The notes under the pieces are model-generated. The model searched no databases, had not been told where the DNA came from, and worked only from the letters and a program-made list of their open reading frames with translations. The translations under genes were made by a program, and so were the position numbers. 64,000 bases of DNA, from assembly GCA_963422735.1 (NCBI GenBank), contig OY730476.1:384001-448000 (forward strand). Direction: 5' to 3'. This document shows, piece by piece, positions 1-40,363 of the stretch. Position 1 is the first letter of the stretch. Each line of letters begins with the position of its first letter. This DNA is from Candidatus Latescibacterota bacterium. GTDB taxonomy: Bacteria; Latescibacterota; UBA2968; UBA8231.

Positions 1-298
1 GGGTGAAGAAATCCAAGTTCTGCCGGGCACTAAAGTTGCCGTAGAGCATGACGTTTTCCGAGACATAGGCCACGTGCTTTTTGGCCTCTAAGGGCTGCTC
101 GGTGATGTCGATGCCGCACAGCTTGACCGTGCCTTTTGTGGGTTCGGTAAAGCCCAACGCGACCATCAAGGTGGTGGTCTTGCCCGCGCCGTTGGCGCCG
201 AGCATGGTGAAGACCTCGCCTTCGTGAATGGTCAGGTTGAGGTCGGTGACGGCTTTGACGTCCCCGTAGTGCTTGGAAAGTCCGATGATCTCCAACAT
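1..298 (-). CDS. ABC transporter ATP-binding protein (5' part; runs off window edge)
   Basis: Manual translation from ATG at 298: MLEIIGLSKHYGDVKAVTDLNLTIHEGEVFTMLGANGAGKTTTL...; Walker A GANGAGKT; AAGGA SD upstream. Confidence 0.93.
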   Translation of the reverse strand, partial: MLEIIGLSKHYGDVKAVTDLNLTIHEGEVFTMLGANGAGKTTTLMVALGFTEPTKGTVKLCGIDITEQPLEAKKHVAYVSENVMLYGNFSARQNLDFFT

Positions 299-322
299 GA
301 GGCGATCCTTTCGTGTGAGTGG

Positions 323-1717
323 TTAGGGGTTCGTGGTTTTGTACCATTCGCTTTGGAGTGCGCGGCCGAGTATGCGCCGCAGCTCTTCGGCTGCGAGGAT
401 GTAGGCTAGGCGCTCGGCAAAATAGCTTTGCTCGGCGAGGTTGACGGCCACCCGCTGGCGGCGGAGGTCATCGAAGTTGAGGTTGCCCATCGCGTTTTCA
501 AATAGCTCTTCGACCGTGTCCAACCGCTGGCGGGCGACATCGGCGCGCCGGCGCAAAAGCTGGGTGTTTTCCCGCCGGCTTTGCAACTCGTAGAAGGCTT
601 CGACCACTTCGAGTTCAATCAAGTGGCGGGTCTCGTCGCGGTCTTGGCGCAGTTCGGTAAGCCGCGCCCGTTCCTCGGCCGACTGCGCCAACCGCCGACC
701 GCCTTGGAACAGCGGCAGCGACAGGTTGGCCATCACCCGCCAGCCCTCGCCCCTGGCCAGCGCGGGGTCTAAGCCCTGGCTGGCCAGCGACCGGCGACCG
801 GAACCCACTACCGTCCACGTTTGGCCGTTGCCACTCCAGTGCAAGCCGAGGTCGGTGTCTTGGACCTTCTTGGTCAGTTGCAGGCCGACGTGGGGTAGCC
901 ACTGCCAGAACACCCGGCGCGCCTGCCGCCGCTGTTGGTCTATTTGCCAGCCGAGTTCGGCCAGATGCGGCCGGTTGGCACAGGCTTCCTCAATGAGGGC
1001 GGGCAAATCCGCTTCGCTGGGATCGAGGAGCTGGAGTTTTTCGTAGGGCGGACCGACGATCTCGATGGCGCGGAGCGAGCGTTTGCCCACCAGGCCGATC
1101 TGGGTGAATAGCTGCAGATGCAGGGTGCGCAGGGTGCGCTGGAGGTGGTTGATGCGCGTCTGCTCCTCCAACACCTCTAGCTCGGCCTCGTGCCGTTCCA
1201 CCGGCCGCGCCAAGCCCGCGTCGAGGCGCGTCTGCACCCGCTCCATTTTGGCGCGGAAGTAGGCGAGCAACTCGTCGCGGCTGGCGATTTCGTCGCGGGT
1301 CAGCAGCAGGCGGTAATAGGCTTGGCGCACCTGGCTATCCACGGCGAGGATCGCCTCGCGGTAGCGCGCCTGGGCCGCCTGCTCCCGATGCTGGGCGGCC
1401 CAGCGCGATGAGGTGATGGCGCCGTAGCGCACCAACTCTTGCTGGGCTTGTAAGAACAGCTCGCGTTGCTCCGGTTCCGGCTCCGGCGCATCGGCGAATT
1501 CGCGGCGTTCGTACTCGGCGTTCAGGCCGAGGGTCGGAAGCTGGTCGGCGTAGTCGAGGCGGGTGCGGGCCGACATTTGGTTCCAGCGGGCACGCGCCGC
1601 GCCGAGTACCGGGCTGTGCTGGCCTGCGGCGCGCTGACACGTCGTTAAATCCCATTCCTCGGCATGGGCAACCACCGCGACGCCGAGGACGGCCCAGACC
1701 CATCGATAGGCAGTCAT
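323..1717 (-). CDS. TolC-family outer membrane efflux protein
   Basis: Likely start MTAYRW (ATGA overlap with upstream stop); signal peptide; OEP-like repeats (LPTLGLNAEY, VRQAYYRLLL, LSLPLFQGG, VVEAFYEL). Confidence 0.85.
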   Translation of the reverse strand: MTAYRWVWAVLGVAVVAHAEEWDLTTCQRAAGQHSPVLGAARARWNQMSARTRLDYADQLPTLGLNAEYERREFADAPEPEPEQRELFLQAQQELVRYGAITSSRWAAQHREQAAQARYREAILAVDSQVRQAYYRLLLTRDEIASRDELLAYFRAKMERVQTRLDAGLARPVERHEAELEVLEEQTRINHLQRTLRTLHLQLFTQIGLVGKRSLRAIEIVGPPYEKLQLLDPSEADLPALIEEACANRPHLAELGWQIDQQRRQARRVFWQWLPHVGLQLTKKVQDTDLGLHWSGNGQTWTVVGSGRRSLASQGLDPALARGEGWRVMANLSLPLFQGGRRLAQSAEERARLTELRQDRDETRHLIELEVVEAFYELQSRRENTQLLRRRADVARQRLDTVEELFENAMGNLNFDDLRRQRVAVNLAEQSYFAERLAYILAAEELRRILGRALQSEWYKTTNP

Positions 1718-3225
1718 CGCTTGCTCCATTGCACGGTGAAGATGGCGATGCCCAGCACGATGCTCACCAGCAAGAGCACCAACCCGGTGATGCCCCAAAA
1801 CGACCCCTCGCTCTTGATGTTGAGGGTGACGGTGCGCTCGACCGACTCGACCCACTGCCCCTTGTGCTGGGTACTCGCACGGGTCTTGACTTCGTAGCGT
1901 CCTATCTCGGCGCTGTTGACCGGCCGCACGGTCAGTGTGGCCTCTATCTCCTCGCGCGGCGGCAACCGGGCGAGGGCCTGCGGCTCAAAGACGACCTCCC
2001 AGCCCGGCGGCGCCAGGGCTTGCAGGCGGATGTCGAGCAATTCAACCGTGCCGAGGTTGCGTAGCTGCCAAACGGACTTCGACTCGCCCTCGCCCTGGAC
2101 CGACAGGTCCAGGTTGAGGGTGGTCAACTCCAATTCGGCGCGGCCGGTGGGCACCAGCTGCAGTTGCTCGTAGCCAATGCCGAGGGCTTGCAAGCGCACC
2201 GGATCGGCGGTGGCCAACACTGCGGCGTCCACCGCCTGGGGCTCGTAGGCCAGCACCGAGAACAGCAGCGGCTGATCGACGGTGAAGTGCTCGGCCTGTT
2301 CGGGGACGTACACGGTGAGGAGGAGCGAGTCGCTGGAGTGGTCGCGGGAAAAGCGCAGCCGCGACAGCTGGCGGCCCCCGCTCTCGAACGCCCAGCGGAA
2401 GTCGGCCGGCAGCCCGTGCGCCATCAGTTGGAAAATCTTTTCGTCTTCGGCCAGCCGCTCTAACTGCAGCTCGTAGGCGACCGAGTGGCCCAACGAACCT
2501 TCTTGAGAAAACTGGGTGGCATACACGCGCACGACGTCGCGGGCGGAAGCCTTCTCGAGGTGAATGACGTGCTCGTCGGTGCGGTTGAGGTATTCAAGTT
2601 GCACGGTGATTTCCTCGACTTCGGGACGCTGCAAGCCGACCTCGATTTCGACTTCTTCGCCCAGGACCAGCACCGGGATGTGGACTTGGTAGGGCTGGCC
2701 GACCATGACGCGGTCGGCGAGGAGGGTGACGAAGAGGTTGTTGACCTGCAACAGGGAGGCGGCGTCTTGGTCGAGGCCGTTGATGTGGTAGCGGCGGCGA
2801 GCGCGATCGACCATTTGCGCCAAGGGGAGGTCGGAGTCGTTGCGCAAGGTGAGCCGCACGCGGACCTTGTCGCCTTCAACGCCGTATTTTTGTCCGTTGA
2901 CGACCGTCAGGTGGGTGGCGTCGGCCAGCGAGTGGAGGAAGGCGCGCTGGAGGTTCAATTCGGCTCGTTGCCGCGCTTGGCGGGCACGCTCGTAGCGCTC
3001 GCGGGCTAGGCGTAGCTCTTGGCCGGTGACCACGCCGCGCGCCTTGAGGCCGATCATCTGCTCGTGCTCGATGGTGATCTCGGCCTCGCGCGCGTTGGCC
3101 TGCTCCAGCGTCAAGTGAGCCTCTTCGAGGTCGAGCAGGATGCGCTGTTGTTCCTTAGTCAAGGTCTCGGCCGAGGCCGCGAAAGCCCACAGCAGCCAGC
3201 CGAAAACGTAGAAGATAGAGCACAT
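1714..3225 (-). CDS. Secreted, C-terminally anchored protein: alpha-hairpin coiled coil + Ig-like/NEW3-like domain (putative export adaptor)
   Basis: Signal peptide (WAFAASA); HlyD-like hairpin (LKARGVVTGQELRLARERYERAR); NEW3-like LRNLGT..L..PPGWEV.FEP...GRY; C-terminal TM helix. Confidence 0.6.
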   Translation of the reverse strand: MCSIFYVFGWLLWAFAASAETLTKEQQRILLDLEEAHLTLEQANAREAEITIEHEQMIGLKARGVVTGQELRLARERYERARQARQRAELNLQRAFLHSLADATHLTVVNGQKYGVEGDKVRVRLTLRNDSDLPLAQMVDRARRRYHINGLDQDAASLLQVNNLFVTLLADRVMVGQPYQVHIPVLVLGEEVEIEVGLQRPEVEEITVQLEYLNRTDEHVIHLEKASARDVVRVYATQFSQEGSLGHSVAYELQLERLAEDEKIFQLMAHGLPADFRWAFESGGRQLSRLRFSRDHSSDSLLLTVYVPEQAEHFTVDQPLLFSVLAYEPQAVDAAVLATADPVRLQALGIGYEQLQLVPTGRAELELTTLNLDLSVQGEGESKSVWQLRNLGTVELLDIRLQALAPPGWEVVFEPQALARLPPREEIEATLTVRPVNSAEIGRYEVKTRASTQHKGQWVESVERTVTLNIKSEGSFWGITGLVLLLVSIVLGIAIFTVQWSKR

Positions 3226-3238: not shown

Positions 3239-4678
3239 CTATACGATGCTGGCTCGCAGCCACGAGCGGTAGGCTAGTATATAGGTGAGCATGGCAAAGA
3301 AGAATAGGCCGATTACATCGACGACAGCGTACCGTAGCAAGGTCTCCGCTGACAGGTTCTCGGTAAAGACCGGCAGGGTATCGGGGTCGATCTTCTGCCG
3401 CGACAGCCCTTGGGCGACGAGGATATGCAGGCTTTTGGGATCGTCGTGGTCGAGGTTTAGCATGGTCTGCTCGAACTGCTGGACAAAGGTGCGCGCCTGC
3501 TCGACAAAGCTTTTGTGGCGCGCCAGCCCGGTGCCGGCGAGCGCTTCCATGCCGTACTGAAAGCAGCCCGTCGGCGACAGGCGCACGATGTGGCGGGCTT
3601 TTTCGACCTCGCCGAGGCTGTAGGCCAGAAATTGGTTTTCCCGGTCTTGGGTAACCCGACGAAAGGCGCGTTCGGCCTCGGCATGCTGGCGCAATATTTT
3701 GGGGTTTCTCATATCGCGCTTCCGTGCATTGCTCCTAAGAGTATTAATTTTCGCTTTTTCTGGAGGTTCGAACTCCCACTCCATTACAACCGCCTCTCCG
3801 AATTCGCGGATCACCACGCGGGAGGCTAGGGCGCCGCCGGCCGCCGGCCAGAGCAGCACCCCGCAAGTCCACAGCAACAGCACCCCGACCAAACTGGAGC
3901 GCGTCGTGCTGCTCCGTATCGATACCCACAGACCCAACGCGACAAAACAGGCCAGATACAAAAGCGATAGGACGACCATGCCGACCAAGCGTCCGACCTC
4001 GACGAGACCCAAGTTCACCTTTGACAGCGCGAGGACGATGAGCAAGTTGACGATGAGGGCGAGGCTCAGCACGATAGAGAGAGCTAGCATCGCACCGAGG
4101 AACTTGCCCAACAGCAGGGTGTGCCGCGGCAGGCTCTGAGCCATAACCAGTTTGAGAGTGCCGCGCTCTTTTTCGCCGATGAAGGCGTCAAAGGTGAACA
4201 ACAGAGCCATGAGGCTGAGCAGACCGCCGATGATAAAGACCCAGTCAATGGCTCGAGTCTTCATTAGTTGGCTGGCCTTGGGTGCCCAGATGCCTACGAT
4301 GTCCCAATAGATGAGTAAAAAGGGATCGTAGAACCAGATGCCGTTGTACTGAAATTTCCAGCTCGGCGTCCAGAGGCGCTCGGGCAGGGCGTCGTTGGCA
4401 CCAACGGCGCAGAACATGAGGGGGCTGGGTTTTTTATAGATATAGTCCTGCCCCCCATGGACTATCAGCTTCCACAAGCCCATTTGGGCGTTGCTGCGGC
4501 CGATTTCTTGCTCGGCTTGGACCTGTTCGAGATAGTGGTCGCGCCGGAACTCGTAGGAGCCGCCGACAAAGCCGAGGGCGTTGAGCACCATCAGCCCTAC
4601 GACTAGCACGAGGGCCAAGCCGAAACGGAGGCTGATGAGGTGATCGAGCAGTTCGCGTTTTATAATGGCTGCTAGCAT
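3239..4678 (-). CDS. ABC-2 family permease, paralogue type B (copy 1)
   Basis: MLAAIIKRELLDHL; GEKERGTLKLVMAQSLPRHTLLLGKFLG motif; several TM segments and large extracytoplasmic loops. Confidence 0.88.
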   Translation of the reverse strand: MLAAIIKRELLDHLISLRFGLALVLVVGLMVLNALGFVGGSYEFRRDHYLEQVQAEQEIGRSNAQMGLWKLIVHGGQDYIYKKPSPLMFCAVGANDALPERLWTPSWKFQYNGIWFYDPFLLIYWDIVGIWAPKASQLMKTRAIDWVFIIGGLLSLMALLFTFDAFIGEKERGTLKLVMAQSLPRHTLLLGKFLGAMLALSIVLSLALIVNLLIVLALSKVNLGLVEVGRLVGMVVLSLLYLACFVALGLWVSIRSSTTRSSLVGVLLLWTCGVLLWPAAGGALASRVVIREFGEAVVMEWEFEPPEKAKINTLRSNARKRDMRNPKILRQHAEAERAFRRVTQDRENQFLAYSLGEVEKARHIVRLSPTGCFQYGMEALAGTGLARHKSFVEQARTFVQQFEQTMLNLDHDDPKSLHILVAQGLSRQKIDPDTLPVFTENLSAETLLRYAVVDVIGLFFFAMLTYILAYRSWLRASIV

Positions 4679-4717: not shown

Positions 4718-5559
4718 TTATAGGAGGTTGAACAGAAAGTTCTGCGGTACGCCGCCGCTAAAATAGGCCTCTACATGGCACCACATAGCCCGCTGTGGAT
4801 CCCAGACCAGCCGAAAGAAGGACGGGGTGCGCCCCTGCCATGGCCAAGGGGAGATCCCGGCCGGCTCTTCGACGATGAACATGATATCGGCGAAAATCAA
4901 CGACTCGCCTGCCTGTAGAGCGTCCTCCACCTCATCGCGTAGTTTGGGGTGAAAATTCAAGGTAGCTTTGGGGACCATGCCGTGCGTCTGGAGATAGAGC
5001 GCATAGCTATCGTACGCCTCCTGCATCTCGAATACCTTGAATGCGCTGTCGAAAAAGGACACATTCTCAAAAAAATAATCGCGCTTCGTCATGCCGAGTA
5101 TTGCTCTGTGCCCGAGGGTGTATCGCCGATGGGGGCGTATCGGCTAGCGAGAAACTCTTGCAGGAACTCTAACCCGTCGGGGTTATTCGCGCCCTCGCGG
5201 AGGTAAAACGCGGCAGCGAGGCTGTCGCTGCCCGAAGCCGAAAAGACGACCAGAAAGTCGTAGAGCCAATCGCGCCATGCGGCTTCTTGCGCTAGGTCAA
5301 TGGGAGCGCCCAGATCGACGGGGATCGACTCGACCGCCTGCCGCAATTCGGCCCCGGCCGCGACCTTCATCATCTCCTGACCGTGGATGTAGTCGTAGAA
5401 GATTTGCAGGCTGTCGGGGTGGGATGAAAAGCCGCCGTAGTGGGACTTAGCAGGCGCGGCCGTAAGGCTGGAGACGCCTTCCTGTTCTACGCACGCTGAC
5501 TGGGCGAACCAAGCAGCGCTCAGGGCGAAATATAGGACGCGAATAGATAAAGTTTTCAT
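4718..5559 (-). pseudogene. Frameshifted paralogue of secreted protein family X
   Basis: ORFs 5089-5559 and 4718-5092 match the N- and C-halves of 22884-23720; a short deletion near 5115 (GDTP|GHRAILG, lacking the FDILKA-like segment of paralogues) shifts the frame. Confidence 0.8.
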
Positions 5560-5598: not shown

Positions 5599-6417
5599 CT
5601 AGATGGAACTGAACAGAAAATACGGCGTCCCGATGCCGTAAACGATCTCTACATGGCGCCACATCGCCTTGTCCTGATCCCAAGCCATGCGGAAGAAGAA
5701 CGGGGTGCGTACCGCTCCCTCAAAGGCGGCGAACTCCTCAGGCTCTTCGACGATGAACATGACCTCGACAAAGGTCTGTGGTTTGCCCGCTTGGAGGTGC
5801 TCTTGGACCTCGCGCTCCATTTTGGAGGGGTTACCTGATGCGGCCCCGGGTGGAATCATGCCGCTGTCTATGAGGTAAGCGAAATAAGGGCTGTACCCAG
5901 CCTGCTTCTCGGACACCTCAAACGCGCTGTCGAAAAAGGATACCTTTCCGAAGTAGTAATCGCATTCATTCCTGTCGAGGAGTTGCCGGTGCCCCGCTTT
6001 GAGGATATCAAAAGGCGTTTCGCCTTTTAGGAGGCCCTTGCTTGCAAGCTTGCTTTTTAACTCCTCTATCCTTTCGGGATTATTGACGCCCTCGCGGAGA
6101 TAAAACGCGGCGGCGAGGCTGTCGCTACTCGAAACCGAAAAGGCGACTAAGAGATCGTAGAGCCAGGTGCGCAGGTCGGCCTCTTGCGCGGGAGTGATAG
6201 GGGTGTCCCCCTCGACGGGGATGGCCGCAATGGCCTGCTGCAATTCGTCACCGGCCTCGACGTTTATCATCTCCAAGCTGTTGACATAGTCGAAAAAGGC
6301 TTGTTGAACGATTAGGATGCTATCGGGGTGATTGATGGAGTAGCCGCCGTACTGGGCTTTCGGCTCGGCAGAGACGCTGGAGGCGGCGAACCAAGCGGCG
6401 ATTAAGGCGAAATACAA
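5599..6417 (-). CDS. Secreted protein family X paralogue (signal peptide n-region apparently lost)
   Basis: QYGGYS..HPDS, WLYDLLVAFS.S.SDSLAAAFYLREG, MFIVEEPEEF, FFRMAWD..WRHVE motifs; TTG start. Confidence 0.8.
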   Translation of the reverse strand: MYFALIAAWFAASSVSAEPKAQYGGYSINHPDSILIVQQAFFDYVNSLEMINVEAGDELQQAIAAIPVEGDTPITPAQEADLRTWLYDLLVAFSVSSSDSLAAAFYLREGVNNPERIEELKSKLASKGLLKGETPFDILKAGHRQLLDRNECDYYFGKVSFFDSAFEVSEKQAGYSPYFAYLIDSGMIPPGAASGNPSKMEREVQEHLQAGKPQTFVEVMFIVEEPEEFAAFEGAVRTPFFFRMAWDQDKAMWRHVEIVYGIGTPYFLFSSI

Positions 6418-6556: not shown

Positions 6557-6736
6557 TTAGGAAGTGCATACCGCAGTCCCGCTCTCGCACGTGCAACTGG
6601 TCTTCCAACCGATTGCCTTGCACTTACTCCCATCAGGGCAAGTGATACTGCAATAAATAGCCTCGGCCTTCTGCGGCAGGAAGCTGGCGATCAAGCTCGT
6701 GAGGCCAATGGCCAGCCGGATGATGCGCTTTTTCAT
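6557..6736 (-). CDS. Cys-rich secreted precursor peptide 1 (59 aa, not in ORF track)
   Basis: MKKRIIRLAIGLTSLIASFLPQKAEA-IYCSITCPDGSKCKAIGWKTSCTCESGTAVCTS*; SD AAGGGAG; leader shared with three paralogues; 6 Cys. Confidence 0.9.
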   Translation of the reverse strand: MKKRIIRLAIGLTSLIASFLPQKAEAIYCSITCPDGSKCKAIGWKTSCTCESGTAVCTS

Positions 6737-6895: not shown

Positions 6896-6910
6896 GCAAT
6901 CTTCGTGCCA
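6896..6910 (-). promoter_or_regulatory. Sigma-54 -24/-12 promoter
   Basis: TGGCAC-GAAGA-TTGC. Confidence 0.88.
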
Positions 6911-7236: not shown

Positions 7237-8808
7237 TTACTTGGCGTCGTAGCGCGCAAAGAGCCAGTTGGCGAGGACAAAGAGCCCGGCCGCATACAGC
7301 AACAGGGCGGTTAGATCCGGCAAGGCGTGGCTCAGACTCCTGGCGGCCGTCCAGCCGCGCTCGTGAAACCTCGGCAAGTCGCGCAGGTCGGCGCGCCAGC
7401 CGGGGTCGTCGTTGAACCACTCGCGGGCCCCGAAGGCATCGCGCTCTTCGAGAAAGGTGACGAGTTGCCCGCGATAGGCGCGGACTTGGTTGATGAAGTC
7501 GTAGTATTCGCGTCGGCTGGTGCCGGCGAAAACACTGGCGGCTTGGGCATAGGTCCCGGCGGGCAGAAGGCGCTGGAGATAGGTGTTCCAGCGTTGGATG
7601 CGGCGGGGGAAGTTTTCGAGCAGGGGAGCTTTGGCGTGCCAAGCGCGCTGGACGTACTTCAGGCGCAACCGCTCGCCGGTGCGGATGATGTTTTGGAACT
7701 CGGCGAGTGCGGGCGAATCGACTACATTCGACATATAGAGAACAGGTTTCTGCTCATCGTCATAGTAAGCGCCAGTTCCCCCCCAATGTGTTTTAGTCCC
7801 GCGTCCCGGTTGTGGAGGGAGTTGCTCAACCATCTCTACGGGTTGGTACTGGGTCTGGCCGTGCGCCCGAGCGAGGTTAGTGACCTCCTGATCGAACTCC
7901 TTCCACACTTGCGCGGCCCTGTGATGGGCTTGCTTGTGCTTTTCGCCCATGTTGGCTTGCTCGTTGAGCCAGGCCGTGATACTGTCGGGCAGCACAATCG
8001 CCAGCAGTGCCCACATAAACAGCGCGTAAATCAAGCTGGTCGCCGAGCGGTGCGTGGCGCACGAGATCGCCAGTCCAATTAGATAGAACACGAGCAGATA
8101 CAGCAGCGACAGTGCGAACAGCAGCCCCAACCGCGCCCACTCGCCGGTCCCGATCTCGATATGCTCGGTGCCCAATAGCAAGATCATCAGCAGGATAAAG
8201 CCGAGGGCGGTCGGAATGGCCAGCGTGGTCAGGCCAGCGAGGACTTTGCCGGCGAGGACTTGGGCGCGGCTGACGTTGGTCGTCAGCATCAGCCGCAGGG
8301 TGCCGTCCTCCTTTTCGCCGGAGATGGCTTCGCTGGCGATGAGAATGGCCAGCAGGCCGAGCACGAGTTGGAAGATGTACACTATGTCGAAGGAGGCAAA
8401 GATGGCGAGGTAGGGATTGCCCGACTGGAAGGGAGCAATCGCCTCGGTTTGGTAGGGCACCTCAAAGAGCAGGACCTTGACGGCTTGCCCCACCTCTTGT
8501 TCGACGCCTTGGGCGAACACCTCCAAAGGGCGTGGGGGCCGTAGAGCACGCGGAGCCGCCTCGGCATCGAATACACCGACGACCGGACCGAAGTGGTCGC
8601 TGCCTAGGGCCGAATAATAGGTGATTTCGTAGAATTTGTTGTCTTCAACGGCGCGTTGGGCGAGGTAGCTGGACTTTTTCTGGACATAAGTCTGGCTGAT
8701 GAGCATCCCGTTGGCGATGATGAGCACTACCGCGAGGGCGGTGCAAGCGGCGAAGCGCTGGCTGAGCAGGTGGCTGAGCATCTCTTTTTTGAACACAATG
8801 CCGATCAT
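7237..8808 (-). CDS. ABC-2 family permease, paralogue type A (copy 1)
   Basis: MIGIVFKKEMLSHL; SGEKEDGTLRLMLTTNVSRAQVLAGK motif; TM segments; C-terminal FARYD. Confidence 0.88.
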   Translation of the reverse strand: MIGIVFKKEMLSHLLSQRFAACTALAVVLIIANGMLISQTYVQKKSSYLAQRAVEDNKFYEITYYSALGSDHFGPVVGVFDAEAAPRALRPPRPLEVFAQGVEQEVGQAVKVLLFEVPYQTEAIAPFQSGNPYLAIFASFDIVYIFQLVLGLLAILIASEAISGEKEDGTLRLMLTTNVSRAQVLAGKVLAGLTTLAIPTALGFILLMILLLGTEHIEIGTGEWARLGLLFALSLLYLLVFYLIGLAISCATHRSATSLIYALFMWALLAIVLPDSITAWLNEQANMGEKHKQAHHRAAQVWKEFDQEVTNLARAHGQTQYQPVEMVEQLPPQPGRGTKTHWGGTGAYYDDEQKPVLYMSNVVDSPALAEFQNIIRTGERLRLKYVQRAWHAKAPLLENFPRRIQRWNTYLQRLLPAGTYAQAASVFAGTSRREYYDFINQVRAYRGQLVTFLEERDAFGAREWFNDDPGWRADLRDLPRFHERGWTAARSLSHALPDLTALLLYAAGLFVLANWLFARYDAK

Positions 8809-10078: not shown

Positions 10079-10079
10079 C

Positions 10080-13457: not shown

Positions 13458-13537
13458 CTGCATTCTCCTTGTGATAGACGGCAGGGGCCGTCGGGTGTCT
13501 GCTTCGTTTGCAGCGGGTTGTCTTTGGAGATAGATAT

Positions 13538-13552
13538 GCAATAAGCGTACCA
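13538..13552 (-). promoter_or_regulatory. Sigma-54 -24/-12 promoter
   Basis: TGGTAC-GCTTA-TTGC(A). Confidence 0.8.
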
Positions 13553-26767: not shown

Positions 26768-26784
26768 CAAGTTGCTCCTTATTG

Positions 26785-29307: not shown

Positions 29308-29360
29308 GGCGTGCTGCTTTCACCGAAAGGTGTAGGGTATTGCTTCTGCTAGCATTACTT

Positions 29361-29375
29361 GCAGTTATCGCGCCC
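29361..29375 (-). promoter_or_regulatory. Degenerate sigma-54 promoter
   Basis: GGGCGC-GATAA-CTGC(A): GG and GC correctly spaced, at the position equivalent to the other units. Confidence 0.45.
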
Positions 29376-29500
29376 GTTGTGAGCCAGCGGCTGGCAAATG
29401 GGCTAACGAAATTGAGCTAACTACCTGTTAGATAAGGAATTATAAAAGTAACGATAATTTTTGTCGAGCCTTTTGCCGCAATCGCTTGACCCTATGAAAA

Positions 29501-29559
29501 TGCGACAATATATCGCATAAGTGCGTCTAATCATCGCGTTAATGCGATTCATCATCGCA
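29501..29559. promoter_or_regulatory. Three UAS boxes
   Basis: TGCGACAATATATCGCA, TGCGTCTAATCATCGCG, TGCGATTCATCATCGCA; 21-bp period. Confidence 0.78.
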
Positions 29560-29784
29560 CCGGTGCGGCGGTTGGTTGTGGTGTAGGTCCTGCTCAGTGG
29601 AACGGTTCTGCCGCCTGCCGAGGCAGCGGAACGACGGCGGAACGGGCGGCGAGTGTTTACTAGCAATGCGGCCGGGGCCGGGAAGTGGGCCGCCCGGCCT
29701 ATGAACTACCCGCTTTGGTCTGGTAGCCTGTGTGTTTAGGTGCTCCGGTTGTCTCGGCGTTGCGGCGATTAAGGACGCCTCCTT

Positions 29785-31239: not shown

Positions 31240-31270
31240 GAGAAGGCATCTTTCTCCGAAAGGGGTTTCC

Positions 31271-32851: not shown

Positions 32852-32907
32852 GGCGCGGCTCCTACGGGTAAGAATCTGTTGAGTTAAGGAAGTTCTGATC
32901 AAATTGG

Positions 32908-33912
32908 TCAAGCGGCCATCGCCTTAAGGACCGCTTGGCTCTGCATTTCCATACCGAGTTGCTTAAACAGGCGCAACGCCGCCACCCACTCTGCCAACGC
33001 CCGCTGCTTGTCGCCATCCTGTTGCGCGTACAGATTGCCCAAGGACACGTAGTTGAAAGCCTGCCTCCTCGCGTTACCCAACTGTCGGCACAGGTCCATA
33101 CAAGCCTCTATATGCCGTTGCGCCCTCGCTAGGTCGCCGGCTGTCATGTAGAGGTCTGCTAGCAGCGTCGCCATGCTGTAGTGACCGCGGGCATGCCCCT
33201 GCGCCACGTAGATGCTCAAGGCTTGGTTGCCACTGCTCAAGGCGCGTTCTGTATGGCCTAAGTCGCGGCTGACCGAAGCGATGGAGCCGAGTTGTAAGGC
33301 CACTTCGAGCGGCGTCCCTTGCTGCCGGGCTGCCGCGAGGCCCGCCGTGAAATGTTGTAGGGCCTGCTCGGGGTCGCCGCGGCGCAGGGCCAGTTGTCCC
33401 AAGCTGTTGAGCAGGTTGCTCGGCACGTCGTTGTCATAGAGGGCGTGGCTGCGATGGAGCCACTGTTGAGCTTTTTCCAAGTCGTTCTGCTGCATGTAGA
33501 GGTTGCCCATATTGTTGGCCATCTTGGCTGCGAGGGCGGCGTCCCCTCCTTCTTGGGCGTGCTGGATGGCCTTATGGTAGTACGCGGTGGCTTCGGCGAA
33601 GTGGGCTTGGCTTTGTTTGATAAAGCCCACATTGCCTTCGACCTCGGCTACATCGCACCGGGAGCGGCTAGGCGAGCAGGCGGCCAATGCCTCTTGGAAG
33701 TACTGGAGCGATTCGTCGAGGTCGCCGGCGATCTCGTAGTGGTGGCCGAGCTGGGTGCAAGTCGCAAAAAGCCCCTTTTGGCATTCCTCGGCGCGAAAGA
33801 GCCGACGCGCTGTTTGGTAGTGGGTGGCCGCTTGCTCGTGCTGCCCCTTCTTGCGGCAGGTATGGCCCGCTTTGAGATGTGTCCACGCCTCGGTTGTTTT
33901 GGGCGAATTCAT
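32908..33912 (-). CDS. Tetratricopeptide-repeat protein (intact)
   Basis: Repeated LG..Y...G...A...Y..AL helical pattern; no signal peptide. Confidence 0.85.
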   Translation of the reverse strand: MNSPKTTEAWTHLKAGHTCRKKGQHEQAATHYQTARRLFRAEECQKGLFATCTQLGHHYEIAGDLDESLQYFQEALAACSPSRSRCDVAEVEGNVGFIKQSQAHFAEATAYYHKAIQHAQEGGDAALAAKMANNMGNLYMQQNDLEKAQQWLHRSHALYDNDVPSNLLNSLGQLALRRGDPEQALQHFTAGLAAARQQGTPLEVALQLGSIASVSRDLGHTERALSSGNQALSIYVAQGHARGHYSMATLLADLYMTAGDLARAQRHIEACMDLCRQLGNARRQAFNYVSLGNLYAQQDGDKQRALAEWVAALRLFKQLGMEMQSQAVLKAMAA

Positions 33913-34072: not shown

Positions 34073-34939
34073 TTACATGGTAGCTAATAAAAAAGACTGC
34101 CGTACACCACGGCTGAAAAATGCCTCTACCGGACGCCATATATTGCGCCCTGAATCCCAAGCTAAGCGAAAAAAGGAAGGAGTACGCCCCGGTATCTCGA
34201 ATGTCGTAAATTCCGCTGGTTCTTCGACGATGAAGAGGACATCTACAAAGAGTATCTTTTCACCTGCCTTTAGGCGTTCTTCTACTTCTGGACGTAGTAA
34301 AAGCTCTAGTGAAGTTATGCCCCGCGGAAGCATGTCTTGGGTCTTGGCATAGTCTTCATAGCTATCGTATCCTTCCTGCATCTCAAACACTTTGAACACG
34401 CTGTCGAAAAAGGATACGTTGCCAAACAGATAGTCGCGTTCCAACTCCTCAAGGACGGCGAACCTGTAAGCAGCTTTGAAAACGTCTAACGGCCTATCGC
34501 CTTCCAGCAAATCAGGCCTTTCGCTCTCGAGATCCACTTTGATGGTCTCTACGATGTCGGGATGGATATTTCCTCCGCGCAGGTAGAAGGCAGCGGCGAT
34601 GCTGTCGTTGCCTGAGATCGAATGAGCAACCAAGAAGTCGTAGAACCAAGAGCGCAGGCTGGCTTCTTGCTCTAGGTCAATGGGAGCACCTAGATCGACG
34701 GGAATCGCCTCTATGGCCTGCTGCAATTCGGCTCCGGCCTCAACCTTTATCATCTCCTGATTGTGTATATAGTCGTAGAAGACCTGGAGGCTGTCGGGGT
34801 GGTATGAAAATCCATTGTATTGGCTTTTAGGAGCGGCAGTGGCTGCGCTGGAGATGTCTTCCTGGGCTATGCCCGCAGATTGGGCAAACCAAGTGGCGAC
34901 TAAGGCGAAATACAAGGTGCGAATAGCTGAAAGTTTCAT
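34073..34939 (-). CDS. Secreted protein family X paralogue
   Basis: Start MKLSAIRTLY after AAAGGAG; shared motifs. Confidence 0.85.
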   Translation of the reverse strand: MKLSAIRTLYFALVATWFAQSAGIAQEDISSAATAAPKSQYNGFSYHPDSLQVFYDYIHNQEMIKVEAGAELQQAIEAIPVDLGAPIDLEQEASLRSWFYDFLVAHSISGNDSIAAAFYLRGGNIHPDIVETIKVDLESERPDLLEGDRPLDVFKAAYRFAVLEELERDYLFGNVSFFDSVFKVFEMQEGYDSYEDYAKTQDMLPRGITSLELLLRPEVEERLKAGEKILFVDVLFIVEEPAEFTTFEIPGRTPSFFRLAWDSGRNIWRPVEAFFSRGVRQSFLLATM

Positions 34940-34971
34940 TTTGTTTTCTCCTTTTAATATGTAGTTATCTT

Positions 34972-35003
34972 GGCGGCAAGTAGTCGGTTGACCACTTGCC
35001 GCC
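34972..35003 (-). terminator. Hairpin downstream of precursor 4
   Basis: GGCGGCAAGT...ACTTGCCGCC stem. Confidence 0.6.
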
Positions 35004-35043
35004 TGTATAGATTGCTTCAACGTTTGGTGTGAGTTCTTGCCGT

Positions 35044-35268
35044 TTACCCGGCAGGGTGGTCCTCGGCTTCGCATACCGCCCTATTGTCAGCGTCGCAGTA
35101 GCATCTGGTTTTGTCGCCAAACACGGGACCACAGCAATCTTTGATGCGGAAAGGCCACTTTCCTCTTGTGCAACATTTGCTACAGGTGGCGGCTAGCACC
35201 TCTTGGGGCACAAGGCTGGCCACTAGGCCCATGAGGGCAATCATCGTTAAGATGATGCGCTTTTTCAT
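35044..35268 (-). CDS. Cys-rich secreted precursor peptide 4 (74 aa)
   Basis: MKKRIILTMIALMGLVASLVPQEVLA-ATCSKCCTRGKWPFRIKDCCGPVFGDKTRCYCDADNRAVCEAEDHPAG; 8 Cys. Confidence 0.9.
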   Translation of the reverse strand: MKKRIILTMIALMGLVASLVPQEVLAATCSKCCTRGKWPFRIKDCCGPVFGDKTRCYCDADNRAVCEAEDHPAG

Positions 35269-35416: not shown

Positions 35417-35431
35417 GCAATACTCGTGCCA
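35417..35431 (-). promoter_or_regulatory. Sigma-54 -24/-12 promoter
   Basis: TGGCAC-GAGTA-TTGC(T). Confidence 0.88.
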
Positions 35432-35944: not shown

Positions 35945-36366
35945 TTAGCCGGCTGCCGTTACGTAGGCTCTGCTTGTCGAGCACGGCGCAGTGAGGCGGT
36001 GCCAAGCCACGATAAATTGCTCAGAAAACGTCATGCTGCTGATTCTGGCGGGAGCGTCGAGGACGCGCTCGCTGACCAAGGCTTGGGGGTCAGCCTCTAA
36101 GCGGCGTATTGCCGCGCTTAGAGCTTCCACCGTAGGAGCAAAACGGTGGTGGGGCGGGATAGCCGGATAAGCAGGGAGGGCTGTAGCTGGCGCAATGTAC
36201 GCGCTACAACGAGGGGGCGGATTGTGTGTGCCAAACTATAGCCGTGAAAGAACACCAAAAGACGATGCCCGTCGCGCTGGAGGGCTGTCTCTATCTCCAT
36301 TTTTTTTAGACGGGCGTTCCAAGCGGCGAACCAATTCCAAAACTTCTTGTTGAGTCGGTCCAACAT
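35945..36366 (-). pseudogene. Collapsed glycosylation operon: GT-transglutaminase 5' end joined to GT4-like 3' end
   Basis: MLDRLNKKFWNWF...FFHGYSLAHTIRPLVVARTLRQ|LQPSLLI, then EALSAAIRRLEADPQAL... (same as 25566-25720). Confidence 0.85.
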
Positions 36367-36410: not shown

Positions 36411-36425
36411 GCAATCGGCGTACCA
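36411..36425 (-). promoter_or_regulatory. Sigma-54 -24/-12 promoter
   Basis: TGGTAC-GCCGA-TTGC. Confidence 0.78.
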
Positions 36426-36833: not shown

Positions 36834-38240
36834 TCAGGGTCGGCTGCCGTATTGGCTCACATCTATGTCGAACTGCTTGATCTTGCGCTGTAAATTGCGC
36901 CGCCCCAACTGGATCTGCTGAGCGGCGTGGCTGATGTTGCCGCCCGTTTTCTCTAGAGCGTCTCGGATAAACTGCTCCTCAAAGTGCTGGCGCGCCTCGT
37001 GGAAGAGCGAGTCGGGCCGACCTACTGCTTCCTCTTCTGCTGCTGCTGGCTCATCCTGAAGGGGAGCGTCCTCTACGATCGTCGTCGGCAGGTCCTCGAC
37101 CTCGATTTCCCGTCCCTTGGAGAGGGCTATGGCACGCATGATCGCGTTCTCCATTTCGCGCACATTGCCCGGCCAGTCGTAGGCTTCGAGATACTCTAGG
37201 GCCTCCTTGCTGACCCCTTGTATCTGTTTGTTGAAGCGGTCGTTTAGGTGGTCGATAAAGAAGTGACAGAACAAGGGAATGTCGGTCTTGCGCTGGCGCA
37301 GCGGCGGCACTTCGATGGTGACCGCGTTGAGGCGGTAGAACAAATCCTCGCGGAACTGGCCCGCGGCCACGGCCTGCGTCAAATTGCGGTTGGTCGCGGA
37401 CAGGACGCGCACATCCGCCTTGCGGGTTTTGGTCGATCCCACCACCTCGAACTCCCCTTCCTGCAACACGCGCAACAGCCGGGTTTGTAGCCCCACCTCC
37501 ATGTCGCCGATTTCGTCGAGGAACAGGGTGCCGCCATCGGCCTCCATAAAACGCCCTTTGCGGTCGCGCACTGCGCCAGTGAAAGCGCCTTTTACGTGCC
37601 CGAACAATTCGCTCTCTAGTACGCCTGGGTTCAAGGCCGCGCAATTGCAGCGCACAAAGGGGCCAGTGGCGCGGTCGCTGGAGCGGTGGATGGCCGCGGC
37701 TACGAGCTCCTTGCCGGTGCCGCTCTCGCCGCAGATTAGCACCGGCAGGGGGGTGGCGGCCACGTCTTGGACCAGCCGGTAGATTTGCCGCATCTGCTCG
37801 GTCTCGCCGACCATGCCCAACCCCTCGCCCTGTGCTTGGCGCAAGCGCTCGTTTTCGGCGCGGAGCTTTTGCAACTCGCGGATATTGTTGATGTGGCTGA
37901 GGATTTCTTCGGCATTAAAGGGCTTTGCCAGATACCCATAGGCGCCCAGCTTGACGGTCTCTACCGCGCTTTGGAGATCCGCATACGCCGTTAAGATGAG
38001 CACTTCCTCGGGCCGCTCGCGCACGTTGAGGTGCTGCAGAAGTTCGAGGCCGCTCATCTCGGGCATGTGCAAGTCGAGCAGGATGATGTCAAAGGATTCT
38101 TCTCGCAGGAGCGCGAGGGCCTCGCGCGCGTCCGAGCGGGTTTCCACCGCGAAGCCCTCGCGCCGCAAGATGCTGCTCGACAGCTTCAGCAGATCCTGCT
38201 CGTCGTCGATCATGAGTATTTTGCCGTCGTATCGAGCCAT
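36834..38240 (-). CDS. Sigma-54-dependent response regulator (NtrC/AtoC/ZraR family)
   Basis: Receiver domain (IDDE, LLDLHMP); AAA+ motifs GESGTGKE, ESELFGHVKGAFTGA, WPGNVRE; Fis-type HTH (GGNISHAA). Confidence 0.95.
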   Translation of the reverse strand: MARYDGKILMIDDEQDLLKLSSSILRREGFAVETRSDAREALALLREESFDIILLDLHMPEMSGLELLQHLNVRERPEEVLILTAYADLQSAVETVKLGAYGYLAKPFNAEEILSHINNIRELQKLRAENERLRQAQGEGLGMVGETEQMRQIYRLVQDVAATPLPVLICGESGTGKELVAAAIHRSSDRATGPFVRCNCAALNPGVLESELFGHVKGAFTGAVRDRKGRFMEADGGTLFLDEIGDMEVGLQTRLLRVLQEGEFEVVGSTKTRKADVRVLSATNRNLTQAVAAGQFREDLFYRLNAVTIEVPPLRQRKTDIPLFCHFFIDHLNDRFNKQIQGVSKEALEYLEAYDWPGNVREMENAIMRAIALSKGREIEVEDLPTTIVEDAPLQDEPAAAEEEAVGRPDSLFHEARQHFEEQFIRDALEKTGGNISHAAQQIQLGRRNLQRKIKQFDIDVSQYGSRP

Positions 38241-38242
38241 AT

Positions 38243-40363
38243 CTATGCCTTTTCCTTTTTATTATAAGGCAGCAAGAGCGCGAAGCAAGTGCCTTTGCCA
38301 ACGCGGCTTGTAACCTCTATGTGCCCGCCGATTTCTCGAAGCTGGTGCTGGGCAATGGCCAGCCCCAAGCCCGTGCCTTCTCCCGGAGCTTTGGTGGAAA
38401 AGAACGGCTCAAAGATGCGGGGGATTTGTTCTGGGTCAATCCCGGTGCCGGTGTCGCAGATTTTTATGGCGACGCCCCCCGGCTCGGGGCGGGTGCTCGC
38501 CTGCAAGCGGCCGCCTTGGGGCATGGCTTGGAAGGCGTTGCGGATGATGTTGAGGTAGATATCCTTGAGCATGTCGCGGTTTATGAGCGCGGGTGGCACC
38601 GGCTCAAACTGCCGCTCAATCGAGATGCCGAGGTGCTCGGCGTGTTGGGTCTCCAAGTCGAGCAACTGCCCCAGCACCTCGGCCGCGTCTATCTGCTCGA
38701 CTAGATGCTGGGCTGGTCGCGCGAAGTCGAGCAGGCTGCCGACGCGCTCGTCTATGCGGCGGATGGCCTCGCACATTATATGCAAGGTCTCGTCGCGCTC
38801 CTTTTCTTCTGTGGGATCCAACCGAGGTAGTAGGTCGCAGGTGTTCTGTATAATGGCGAGGGGATTTTTGATCTCGTGCGCTACGCCAGCGGCTACCTCC
38901 CCGAGCGCCGATAGCTTTTCGGCCTGCATGTAGTGCAGTTCGAGCAGGTGCTGCTGCGTCTGATCTTCAACGACGAGCAAGACCTTGCCGCGATGACCAT
39001 AGCTCAACTCGGCCTTGTGCAGGTTCCAGTGGTGCATAGTGCCCTCGGCATCCTCGATTGCGAGGGCATCAACTACTTGCAGGCTCGGGTGGGCCTTTAG
39101 CCAAGCGCGTATTTGGGCTCCGGCGTGGGTCGCGCTCAATGCGGCGTCCCGTTCCGGCAGCAGCAAGCTGGACCATACTTTGTTGCTCTGCACGATGCGG
39201 TACTCGGCGTCGAGCACGGCAATGGCGAGGGGGTTGTCCTCGATCAGATGGTGCTGCAAATCCAAGGTGCTCTCCAAGTCCCGCTGATGCGCGGTTAGCC
39301 CTTGGTCCATCTCGACAAAAGCGTTGGCTAGTTCGCCGATCTCATCTCGGCGCGTCACGGGCGTTCCTGTGAGAGGATAGCCGTTCCGGCGGCGACGCAC
39401 GGCGTGCGTAAGCAAGACGAGGGGCGCGACGACCGAGCTGCGCGTCAGCCCGCCCAAAATCAGCGCCCCTAGTGCAGAAAGCGCGATGATCGCATAGAAG
39501 GAGTACAGCACGACCGTGTACGGATCATACGCCTCGTCTGCGCGCTGTTCGATGGCGACGATCCAGCCCCAATCGCTCACCGGAGCAAAGCCCGTGACCC
39601 ACTCGGTGTCTCCCACATCGCGCCACAGGAGAATTCCCGCCGGTCCGCGCATGGCCTCTATATGTGGGTGGTGTCGCCACGTGTAGAAGGACTGGCGCGT
39701 AGGCCGGGCCAGATAGTGCCCATCCTCGGCGTGGATCAAGGTCGCGTAGCCGGTCCTGCCGATGCGGACGAGATTTATCTTTTGCCAGACTTGGTGAAAG
39801 TCAAGGCGAGCTATTAGGGCTTGGGGCGGTTGGTCGTCCCGTTCCACCGGTAGCGCGACAAAGAGCTTGGGCGTCTCCTTGAATTCTTCGATTAGGGCAA
39901 CGTATAGGCTGCCTGCTGCTACCTTAGCCCAGGCCGCATCCCAGTCGTAAGAAACAGGCAGCGCAACCGACGCGCTCGCGGCCCGTATTTGGTTTTGGGC
40001 GTCCACTAGGTAGAGTCCCTCCACTTCGCTAGATCCGAGCGCGACCTTTTTGAGCAAAGCGCGCCAATCCTGCGGCTCGGTTTCCACAGATCGTGCGAGG
40101 CTTTCCAAATTGAAGGCGACCGGGGAAAAGATGCGGGCGATTTCCTCGGCCGTGCGGTGCGCCATTTCGCGGCGGCTTTCTAGCACGGCCTCTTCTATGG
40201 CTTCGCGGGCCGCGTTCAACACGATGAGATCGACCAGCAACACGGGCACTAGCCCCAAGGCGAGGTAATAGCCCACCAGGCGCAGCCACAGCCGTTGCTT
40301 GGTACTGCGCCAGCTTTTAAGCCTCGCGGCCCAGGTCTTCAGGCTTGGGATCAGCCATCGCAT
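38243..40363 (-). CDS. Sensor histidine kinase (TM, Cache-like, TM, HAMP, PAS-like, HisKA, HATPase)
   Basis: RDEIGELANAF (HAMP), AHEIKNPL (H-box), DTGTGI, FEPFFSTK, GTGLGL. Confidence 0.93.
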   Translation of the reverse strand: MRWLIPSLKTWAARLKSWRSTKQRLWLRLVGYYLALGLVPVLLVDLIVLNAAREAIEEAVLESRREMAHRTAEEIARIFSPVAFNLESLARSVETEPQDWRALLKKVALGSSEVEGLYLVDAQNQIRAASASVALPVSYDWDAAWAKVAAGSLYVALIEEFKETPKLFVALPVERDDQPPQALIARLDFHQVWQKINLVRIGRTGYATLIHAEDGHYLARPTRQSFYTWRHHPHIEAMRGPAGILLWRDVGDTEWVTGFAPVSDWGWIVAIEQRADEAYDPYTVVLYSFYAIIALSALGALILGGLTRSSVVAPLVLLTHAVRRRRNGYPLTGTPVTRRDEIGELANAFVEMDQGLTAHQRDLESTLDLQHHLIEDNPLAIAVLDAEYRIVQSNKVWSSLLLPERDAALSATHAGAQIRAWLKAHPSLQVVDALAIEDAEGTMHHWNLHKAELSYGHRGKVLLVVEDQTQQHLLELHYMQAEKLSALGEVAAGVAHEIKNPLAIIQNTCDLLPRLDPTEEKERDETLHIMCEAIRRIDERVGSLLDFARPAQHLVEQIDAAEVLGQLLDLETQHAEHLGISIERQFEPVPPALINRDMLKDIYLNIIRNAFQAMPQGGRLQASTRPEPGGVAIKICDTGTGIDPEQIPRIFEPFFSTKAPGEGTGLGLAIAQHQLREIGGHIEVTSRVGKGTCFALLLPYNKKEKA

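Follow-up and report, generated by a model that had tools for sequence, protein, structure and literature searches.

Positions 1-40501 of the 64,000-nucleotide window analysed here (the window being positions 384001-448000 of the single-contig, 4.95-Mb genome of a Candidatus Latescibacterota bacterium, contig OY730476.1) hold a serially duplicated, partly decaying array of genes for a family of small secreted peptides, with every array gene on the minus strand. Across four gene architectures, the peptide is obligately linked to a trio of genes encoding a GT1-type glycosyltransferase fused to a transglutaminase-like domain (GT1-TGase), a GT2 glycosyltransferase and a tetratricopeptide repeat (TPR) protein. 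The locus is real and unusual. The reading that we prefer, for which we judge the chances to be evenly balanced, is that of a system akin to the ribosomally made peptides that are modified after translation (RiPPs), whose products are exported through Sec and in which a secreted protein family (family X) and ATP-binding cassette (ABC) transporters provide immunity or export. The case for modification comes from gene linkage, not from chemistry, and it is gene linkage only that points to glycosylation of the peptides.

Peptide genes and their linkage to the enzyme trio

Pfam scans, lists of open reading frames (ORFs) and alignments recovered, on the minus strand and each at or near its expected place, all the items of the gene inventory that a sequence-only reading of the window had drawn up (Table 1). 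The four peptides (58-74 aa) are nearly identical over their first 26 residues, with 16 alignment columns invariant across all four (P21, Q22 and A26 among them), and their cores are variable; the conserved N-terminus and variable core described in that reading were borne out in this respect. The four genes are real, as shown by the conservation of the ORFs and of the cysteine positions in relatives and by purifying selection on the leader. Over 55 pairs of 11 genes of the A type (the type present in the window; see below), the leader has a median rate of non-synonymous change (dN) of 0.114 and of synonymous change (dS) of 0.468, the corresponding values for the core being 0.516 and 0.461. The leader is under purifying selection and the core, with a dN/dS of about 1, is fast-evolving. 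Between recent paralogues of one genome the core dN/dS rises to 2.6-3.2 while all cysteines stay fixed, values that are suggestive only, due to the small numbers and short alignments. Peptide 1 and its orthologue in another locus (L010) have identical leaders (dS 0.055) and cores with a dS of 0.46, a contrast that hints at cassette exchange or gene conversion.

In the main peptide subfamily, cysteines are spaced C-x3-C-x4-C-x8-C-x-C-x6/7-C and the sequence ends in a conserved Gly-Asn-Ala/Pro-Val-Cys. Read by spacing alone, this pattern is one that we take to resemble those of cyclotides and knottins. Only 15 homologues of the peptides were found in a set of 5.8 billion proteins. Since such small ORFs are mostly uncalled, standard genome-mining rules probably miss the locus.

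A leader-like sequence is also present in the 5′ untranslated region of peptide gene 2 (window 17222-17335, minus strand), where a short ORF placed after a strong Shine-Dalgarno-like GGAGG starts like a peptide leader. The matching stretch upstream of peptide gene 1 (near 6800-6850) has lost its start codon, and similar pieces occur in locus L012 and in a remnant region at genome 38 kb. The ORF could be left over from an older peptide gene or could act as a regulatory upstream ORF.

The fusion enzyme is represented by at least 143 clusters in the protein collection, from which 33 loci were taken for comparison; mapping of the window proteins onto these loci defined four architectures. Architecture A is like the window. 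Architecture B comprises, co-oriented and with short gaps, X, peptide, ABC-2 permease B (permB), ABC-2 permease A (permA), DUF1573 protein, GT1-TGase, GT2, TPR, NEW3-domain protein, outer-membrane factor (OEP) and ATPase, an arrangement consistent with a single operon. Architecture C is without the ABC set and X, and includes FG-GAP proteins with a type-IX-secretion tail, an A24-like peptidase, two redoxins, a DUF4159 protein and a propeller-type sigma-54 activator. Architecture D reads propeller activator, small ORF, GT1-TGase, GT2, TPR and kinase. The only parts common to all four are the peptide, the GT1-TGase, the GT2, the TPR protein and a sigma-54 activator. A signal-bearing small ORF lies beside 27 of the 33 GT1-TGase loci (9 of 10 in A, 5 of 6 in B, 10 of 13 in C and 3 of 4 in D), so that the co-occurrence of GT1-TGase and GT2 homologues with such peptides elsewhere, on which the sequence-only reading had made its proposal depend, is indeed observed. 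Peptides were counted with leader-specific profiles, as a generic filter for small ORFs with a signal plus cysteines also passed spurious ORFs; in architecture D the ORF before the enzyme gene was read.

In the 30 other genomes of the genus, the A-type peptide and the enzyme are both present in 14 and both absent in 9, the enzyme occurs without the peptide in 7 and the peptide without the enzyme in 0, a table that, given the non-independence of related genomes, overstates the support for linkage. X and the ABC set, unlike the peptide, do occur in genus genomes lacking the fusion enzyme. The enzyme itself is found in 24 of 63 genomes of the bacterium's own family and in 0 of the 87 genomes searched from 13 other families of the phylum. 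Profile and filter scans of the bacterium's own genome gave about 12 candidate peptide genes (5 with an A-type leader, 3 weaker or divergent, 4 with a C-type leader), and those falling in mapped loci have a fusion-enzyme gene or a piece of one no more than about 10 kb away, a copy at 947 kb being the exception.

The cores of architecture D, in which the peptide gene stands directly before the fusion-enzyme gene, are free of cysteine. Given this finding in the most distant architecture, cysteine-richness, by which the sequence-only reading had described the peptides, is not the defining trait. The D-type small ORFs (L035 9662-9901, L036 141-410, L038 ~9620-9866) have a C-terminal Tyr-x-x-Ile/Val-Gly-Asp-x-Asp/Gly-x-Asp-like motif and may form a peptide family of their own on which the same trio acts.

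Two further loci of the bacterium's own genome deserve mention. About 30 kb from the window, a second architecture (L043, genome 344001-364000, plus genome 341523-341906 and 1710836-1711216) contains Cys-rich peptides with a different, longer leader and, after each of them, an FG-GAP protein bearing a type-IX-secretion tail, together with an A24-like peptidase, two redoxins, a TPR protein, a divergent GT1-TGase, a GT2, a DUF4159 protein and a propeller-type sigma-54 activator. A third, amplified locus (L045/L046, genome 1910001-1950000) carries diverged peptides, X, permeases and a GT1-TGase split into its GT and TGase halves. Identity of its NEW3, OEP and ATPase proteins to their counterparts at the start of the window is 100%, suggesting that the segment was duplicated recently.

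The trio, the export signal and family X

The N-terminal 410 residues of the fusion enzyme are a GT-B glycosyltransferase of GT1 type, with profile matches to YjiC, OleD, CalG and the vancomycin Gtf enzymes down to 3e-23. The predicted fold of the C-terminal half (pLDDT 90.7) comprises a helical linker, a beta-sandwich and a transglutaminase core. Foldseek matches this half best to a putative Cys protease of Cytophaga (3isr, E 1.5e-9), to TgpA and TglA, and to eukaryotic transglutaminases. His683-Cys684, His731, Glu747/His749 and Asp788 are invariant in 27 sequences of the fusion enzyme, the GT1 donor-site motif is kept, and the DGD motif of GT2 is invariant; going by these residues, both enzymes look catalytically active. 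GT2 is otherwise generic: in a comparison of sequences only, its profile reaches the SunS chains (7msp, 7msn) at E 0.004-0.006, which places them near the bottom of the 60 matches listed, as against 8e-32 for chondroitin synthase. The signs of a SunS-like GT2 go no further than this remote match. A lasso-B-like or recognition-element fold in the fusion enzyme did not appear in the best 50 Foldseek rows of the C-terminal half. The TPR protein was discarded as leader reader, since it shows no co-variation with leader type. A predicted complex of GT1-TGase with precursor 1 scored 0.00 in two runs (no controls, partner fold uncertain) and speaks neither for nor against binding.

The consensus of the peptide N-terminus has Lys or Arg at the start, about 13 hydrophobic residues and a Pro-Gln-Lys-Ala-Glu-Ala end (P at -6, A-x-A). 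An n-h-c layout and the -3/-1 rule are the established criteria for signal peptides. Applied here by eye, they make the 26-residue segment read as a Sec signal peptide ending in A-x-A, of which it has every feature, and not as the classical RiPP leader for which it had been taken from the letters of the window. Two other leader families found beside paralogous enzyme genes are unlike the A-type leader in sequence, as are the leaders present at the most distant loci; all of them retain the generic signal-peptide layout and the A-x-A end. With three to four disulfides to form, the cores must reach an oxidising compartment, and export of the peptides is probably Sec-dependent.

A different arrangement can be envisaged in which the N-terminus is a true RiPP leader, the transglutaminase-like domain removes it as a leader protease in the manner of a lasso B protein, the GT domains decorate the core and the ABC-2/NEW3/TolC-like set exports the product from the cytoplasm. 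This would explain why the leader is conserved beyond the need of export alone; it would give a use to the intact Cys-His-acid centre and to the dedicated transporter of A and B loci, and the C-type precursors, in which about 20 further residues, conserved and hydrophilic, stand N-terminal to the leader, could be counted in its favour. We find it quite unlikely, as architectures C and D have no ABC transporter nearby, three unrelated leader families keep signal-peptide features and the A-x-A end, and the C-terminal half resembles general transglutaminase proteins, with no lasso B or PqqD-like domain in its best 50 rows.

Besides the non-independence of the genomes counted above, a number of observations weigh against the RiPP-like reading that we prefer. 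GT1 and GT2 are generic, and their nearest solved relatives act on small molecules or polysaccharides. The number of cysteines is even in all cores, which leaves no obvious free cysteine for S-glycosylation. No signal peptide or transmembrane (TM) segment was found in GT1-TGase, GT2 or TPR; the three are thus presumably cytoplasmic and any action on the peptide would precede Sec export, where a bulky sugar could hinder passage. Cytoplasmic glycosylation ahead of Sec export is known for some adhesins. As for leader recognition, there is no PqqD-type Pfam match and no recognition domain in the best 50 Foldseek rows of the C-terminal half of the fusion, and B-type loci have the same TPR protein (82-86% identical) as the C-type locus of the bacterium's own genome. 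Finally, no peptide was found at 6 of the 33 loci, the misses being mostly short or cut contigs, and 7 enzyme-positive genomes are without an A-type peptide. These loci and genomes may carry other leader types, the genome-wide search having covered the A type.

Some of these points would be equally at home in another scenario, to which we give a minor though appreciable weight. Here the peptides would be unmodified, Sec-dependent, disulfide-stabilised, bacteriocin-like toxins with X and the ABC-2 set as immunity, and the trio would act elsewhere, for instance on envelope glycans or lipids for self-protection or in a surface programme. The Sec-type signals, the closeness of GT1 and GT2 to small-molecule, lipid-linked and polysaccharide transferases, the lack of a recognition element in Pfam and in the best 50 Foldseek rows, a TPR that does not track leader type and the ability of X/ABC sets to stand alone all agree with it. 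It does not readily account for the peptide and the trio being among the sole parts common to four otherwise different architectures, for the position of the peptide gene directly before the fusion-enzyme gene in the most distant of them, or for the absence of an A-type peptide from all 9 enzyme-negative genomes.

Six family-X proteins had been noticed in the window, and six there are, five intact and one split. X has a signal peptide and is matched by no Pfam or NCBIfam model. Its AlphaFold model (pLDDT 82, pTM 0.81) points weakly but consistently to an NTF2-like fold: the best VIA Z was 6.3, and 25 chains reached Z >= 5 and none 8, nearly all of them NTF2-like. Foldseek against the PDB gave nothing at E <= 0.001, and an atlas look-up gave scores < 0.9, with DUF3828 as sole weak lead. 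X paralogues in the window are 46-57% identical, permease B copies 59-79% and the two fusion enzymes 77%. The family is restricted to the genus, where 24 of 30 genomes have it, as against 0 of 45 genomes from 17 other genera; a single genome may show up to 21 matches. At A and B loci the gene next to that of the peptide is almost always an X gene. X is found without the fusion enzyme or the peptide in 5 genomes; one complete genome has regulator, sigma-54 box, X, permB, permA, NEW3, OEP, ATPase, sigma-54 box and X, without peptide or enzymes.

All eight permeases match ABC2_membrane_2 and DUF3526 in Pfam. In the set of TolC-like channel, adaptor and ATPase proposed from the sequence, the first and last are present, as in tripartite efflux systems (outer-membrane factor and ABC ATPase), and the adaptor was misjudged: there is no HlyD or FtsX match in Pfam and the candidate for this role is a NEW3-domain protein, not one of the HlyD family. 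X/ABC sets in peptide-less genomes form the pattern expected of immunity genes kept by non-producers, and we infer that X and the ABC proteins constitute a module that answers to the same sensor circuit and serves peptide handling or immunity. Outer-membrane export would be an alternative or additional role. With Sec-dependent export probable, the ABC-2/TolC-like set is more likely to serve immunity or export across the outer membrane.

Promoters, proposed mechanism and gene inventory

Exact sigma-54 boxes (TGGCAC-N5-TTGC) lie 149-174 nt upstream of 4 of the 4 peptide starts. The genome has 26 such boxes in its 4.95 Mb, 7 of which are at peptide loci. Of the seven promoter units predicted, four have an exact box, two a box with one mismatch and one a weak box near 29360-29375, with 3 mismatches to the consensus and only loosely box-like when read by eye. 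All seven have 1-3 palindromic TGCGAT-N7-CGCA sites, 21 bp apart where tandem. This motif occurs in 33 genomic copies, against 11.5 expected genome-wide from base composition, and 16 of the 33 fall within window 7056-36575, a clustering far beyond chance. An rpoN gene is present in the genome, and an NtrC-type activator and a dCache kinase stand at the array head; the locus has, in sum, the features of a sigma-54 regulon (correctly spaced boxes, an rpoN gene, a neighbouring AAA+ activator and sites repeated upstream). The claims of sigma-54 control, by motif, and of an adjacent two-component system thus held up, the array's proposed end at 40363 being an inner ATG of the kinase gene.

A GC-rich hairpin of 12-16 bp follows each of the 4 peptide genes (z -5.0, -3.7, -2.4 and -4.7) and has no clear U-tract. 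We infer that it is a device for making peptide mRNA in excess, with partial read-through. No public run recorded as RNA covers the locus (looked for over window 16900-25200). One run (X10), whose RNA nature is a guess, yielded short contigs covering 22 of 30 bins, including one of 375 nt over 6497-6871 (peptide gene 1 plus flanks); such contigs show no starts, ends or levels and were not used as expression evidence.

Besides adjoining the array, the sensor kinase and regulator govern X/ABC sets in genomes that lack the peptide, and compact disulfide-rich secreted peptides are typical ligands. The peptides might for these reasons be signals (autoinducers for the adjacent dCache kinase) or host- or partner-directed factors, with the trio tuning stability or recognition. 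This we hold to be unlikely: cores with a dN/dS of about 1 or more, and partner genes duplicated along with them, are better explained by an arms race than by a conserved signal-receptor pair, and a single kinase would face many divergent peptides.

For the RiPP-like, Sec-exported system that we favour, the following course of events is proposed. The kinase would sense an outside cue and the regulator would bind the TGCG-N9-CGCA sites and fire sigma-54 transcription, the hairpin making for a short peptide mRNA in excess over read-through to the downstream genes. The cytoplasmic trio would modify the pre-peptide, most likely by glycosylation, and the papain-like Cys-His-acid centre of the transglutaminase domain may add trimming or cross-linking. 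Sec would then export the pre-peptide, which would be cut after A-x-A and fold in the periplasm to a disulfide-locked mini-protein. Handling of the mature peptide would fall to periplasmic X and to the pair of ABC-2 permeases, together with a single shared ATPase, the NEW3 protein and the TolC-like channel, and would serve either to protect the producer or to move the peptide out through the outer membrane. An antagonistic, bacteriocin-like role with cognate immunity is suggested by the fast evolution of the cores, by the co-duplication of X and permB with each peptide and by the presence of X/ABC in peptide-less genomes.

Taken further, the same observations might define a new class of ribosomal natural products, a proposal we make tentatively and rate as less than probable. 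Its members would be Sec-led mini-proteins decorated before export by the GT1-TGase fusion, GT2 and TPR, then turned into knotted, disulfide-locked glycopeptides. One genus would have built them into arrays of peptide/immunity cassettes under a single sigma-54 circuit, and the sister architectures with FG-GAP surface proteins or Cys-free peptides would make the trio a general modification platform. Should the trio indeed modify the peptides, it would represent an unrecognised route that links general Sec export to glycosyl- and transglutaminase-type chemistry in the cytoplasm, and this in a phylum without a cultured member. It would also amount to a natural collection of small, disulfide-rich scaffolds whose loops are hypervariable and which come with matched binding or immunity proteins, a resource of interest to antimicrobial discovery and peptide engineering. 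On the most conservative reading, the locus still exemplifies clearly the amplification of cassettes that are subject to diversifying selection and governed by a single sigma-54 sensor circuit.

The features of the array are collected in Table 1. Several copies are decaying (split, truncated or reduced to remnants), which fits repeated duplication followed by loss. NCBIfam has no family for the four peptides, X, the NEW3 protein or the GT4 remnant, and its matches for GT1-TGase, GT2, TPR, DUF1573, OEP, both permeases, regulator and kinase are all below the curated cut-offs. Close relatives of the window's proteins come from records titled Candidatus Latescibacterota, a few being titled Gemmatimonadota or Planctomycetota.

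Table 1. Genes and promoter elements of the peptide array (window positions)
Feature	Position	Strand	Remarks
Peptide gene 1	6557..6736	-	59 aa; 26-aa Sec-type signal, 33-aa core, 6 Cys
Peptide gene 2	17007..17225	-	72 aa; GTG start; 6 Cys
Peptide gene 3	24745..24921	-	58 aa; 6 Cys
Peptide gene 4	35044..35268	-	74 aa; 8 Cys
Family X	5599..6417	-	directly behind peptide 1; secreted NTF2-like protein (predicted)
Family X, split over two ORFs	4718..5559 (5089-5559 + 4718-5092)	-	
Family X	12660..13553	-	
Family X	22884..23720	-	copy used for fold prediction
Family X	23766..24677	-	directly behind peptide 3
Family X	34073..35074	-	directly behind peptide 4; inner ATG probably the true start
permB	7237..8808	-	Pfam
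permB	15291..16967	-	Pfam
permB	19279..20853	-	Pfam
permB	31271..32911	-	Pfam
permA	3239..4678	-	Pfam
permA	13818..15278	-	Pfam
permA	17805..19256	-	Pfam
permA	29785..31329	-	Pfam
GT1 (GT-B)-transglutaminase-like fusion, copy 1	10080..12590	-	836 aa
GT1-transglutaminase-like fusion, copy 2	26785..29307	-	840 aa
GT1-TGase remnant (third gene)	~36169..36366	-	N-terminal residues 1-66 only
GT2 glycosyltransferase	8872..9927	-	351 aa
GT2, truncated copy	26081..26794	-	237 aa
GT4-type glycosyltransferase remnants	~25500..26064 and 35945-36130	-	match full-length Glycos_transf_1 gene in locus L017
TPR protein, intact	32908..33912	-	334 aa
TPR gene, second, split over two frames	20893..21893	-	
DUF1573 protein	21906..22844	-	signal peptide
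NEW3-domain membrane protein	1714..3225	-	503 aa; N-terminal signal/anchor, helical stretch, C-terminal TM
TolC-like outer-membrane factor (OEP)	323..1855	-	Pfam
ABC ATPase (ABC_tran), 5′ part	1..298	-	whole gene genome 383576-384298, straddles window start
NtrC-type sigma-54 activator	36834..38240	-	receiver, AAA+, HTH_8
Sensor histidine kinase	38243..40501	-	dCache, HAMP, PAS, HisKA, HATPase_c
Exact sigma-54 -24/-12 box, peptide 1	6896..6910	-	upstream activator sites ~7040-7093
Exact sigma-54 box, peptide 2	17399..17413	-	upstream activator site ~17558-17574
Exact sigma-54 box, peptide 3	25073..25087	-	three activator sites, 21 bp apart, ~25234-25292
Exact sigma-54 box, peptide 4	35417..35431	-	second, 1-mismatch box 35446-35460; activator sites ~35576-35613
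Variant sigma-54 box (TGGTAC...), before X gene	13538..13552	-	one mismatch; palindromic activator site ~13665-13702
Promoter region, GT1-TGase copy 2	29360..29560	-	three activator sites (29500-29559), AT-rich stretch, weak sigma-54-like box
Variant sigma-54 box, before GT1-TGase remnant	36411..36425	-	one mismatch; activator site ~36559-36575

In a public run guessed to be DNA (X8), contigs over window 5201-25200 join distant paralogous modules, e.g. 8823 to 23889 and 12824 to 23167. Such joints would mean that related strains hold arrays with other numbers of modules; at 90% likeness, other organisms or repeats can also give them. Directly upstream of the sensor kinase (window 40411-41735, minus strand) lie genes for a secreted CBM9-domain protein and an RNase H, with no evident link to the array. 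At the 3′ end of the array, outside the window (genome ~377.8-382 kb; L042 13804-17943), are found a NurA nuclease gene, two HAS-barrel/HerA-type ATPase genes and a DNA methylase fragment. Unrelated housekeeping genes fill the window from 42 kb onward. Among the genes of this part, that for a DUF790 protein directly adjoins one for an XPB-type helicase with a damage-recognition domain (window 51822-54520, minus strand), a pairing known from archaeal XPB-Bax1.

Comparison with known systems

No described class fits the array, which does have the generic features of RiPP systems: a ribosomal precursor with a conserved N-terminus and a variable core, and enzyme genes conserved beside it. In the literature, no description was found of GT-transglutaminase fusions with peptides or of sigma-54-driven arrays of Cys-rich peptides. 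The available part of one Latescibacterota genome paper lists only generic antiSMASH classes, and that of one review treats sponge cysteine-bridged peptides as animal-encoded. The separation from known classes that had been proposed from the sequence is in keeping with the Pfam scans, which gave no C39 peptidase, MNIO or lasso cyclase, and with the remoteness of the SunS match.

Like the glycocins (sublancin with SunS, thurandacin with ThuS), the array combines disulfide-containing ribosomal peptides with an adjacent GT2 and a TPR element in the system. Unlike them, it has no double-glycine leader, its leaders ending in A-x-A, and no C39-peptidase ABC exporter (no Peptidase_C39 match in Pfam among 31 ORFs scanned), two absences already noticed in the sequence-only reading. 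Its peptides have an even number of cysteines (6-8) with none evidently free, there is an extra GT1-transglutaminase enzyme, and the host is of Gram-negative type, with an outer-membrane channel. With the lasso B proteins it has in common a transglutaminase-like Cys-His-acid domain encoded beside the precursor peptide. In this case, the domain is fused via a beta-sandwich to a GT-B enzyme and resembles general bacterial transglutaminase-like proteins (3isr, TgpA), and no lasso cyclase (Asn_synthase-type) was matched by Pfam among the window ORFs scanned.

Sec-dependent unmodified bacteriocins with ABC-type immunity are known, as is the LanFEG/LanI immunity of lantibiotics. The array resembles both in its signal-peptide-led peptide, in its cognate ABC-2-type transporter with a small extracytoplasmic protein, and in the orphan immunity genes of non-producers. 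It differs in the obligately linked enzyme trio, in the NTF2-like X of an unnamed family, in the large-loop DUF3526 permeases and in the TolC-like channel. The heat-stable enterotoxin of E. coli is exported by Sec, acquires its disulfides in the periplasm and then leaves via MacAB-TolC. In a similar way, a Sec-led Cys-rich peptide of the array could be oxidised in the periplasm and expelled via the ABC pump and the TolC-like channel. Unlike the enterotoxin pathway, the array has ABC-2 permeases, not FtsX/MacB, and a NEW3 membrane protein in place of an adaptor of the HlyD family.

In our analysis the bufferins appear as the closest precedent. In the accessible text of the paper describing them (PMC11626156), they are MNIO-modified RiPPs with Sec signal peptides, and bulky modifications are said to suit Sec poorly. 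The array has a GT1-transglutaminase fusion, a GT2 and a TPR protein where bufferins have MNIO and DUF2063; neither MNIO (DUF692) nor DUF2063 was matched in Pfam scans of 50 window ORFs. Also unlike bufferins, it has hypervariable multi-copy cores, sigma-54 control and an ABC-2/TolC-like set with X, and no metal role is indicated. That the peptides are periplasmic metal-binding peptides of the bufferin kind, with the ABC-2 set in metal handling, strikes us as very improbable. The idea can appeal to Cys-rich cores behind Sec signals, as in bufferins, and to the ABC2_membrane_2 permease family, which we take to be often annotated with copper-enzyme maturation. It conflicts with the lack of MNIO/DUF692 and DUF2063 matches in the window, with hypervariable loops and even cysteine numbers, which fit a disulfide scaffold, and with the Cys-free cores of architecture D. 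What the RiPP-like system proposed here shares with the bufferins is a small Cys-containing precursor with a Sec-type N-terminus (read by eye in the present case), adjacent modifying enzymes without export signals, and reliance on the general Sec route with no dedicated leader-cleaving exporter.

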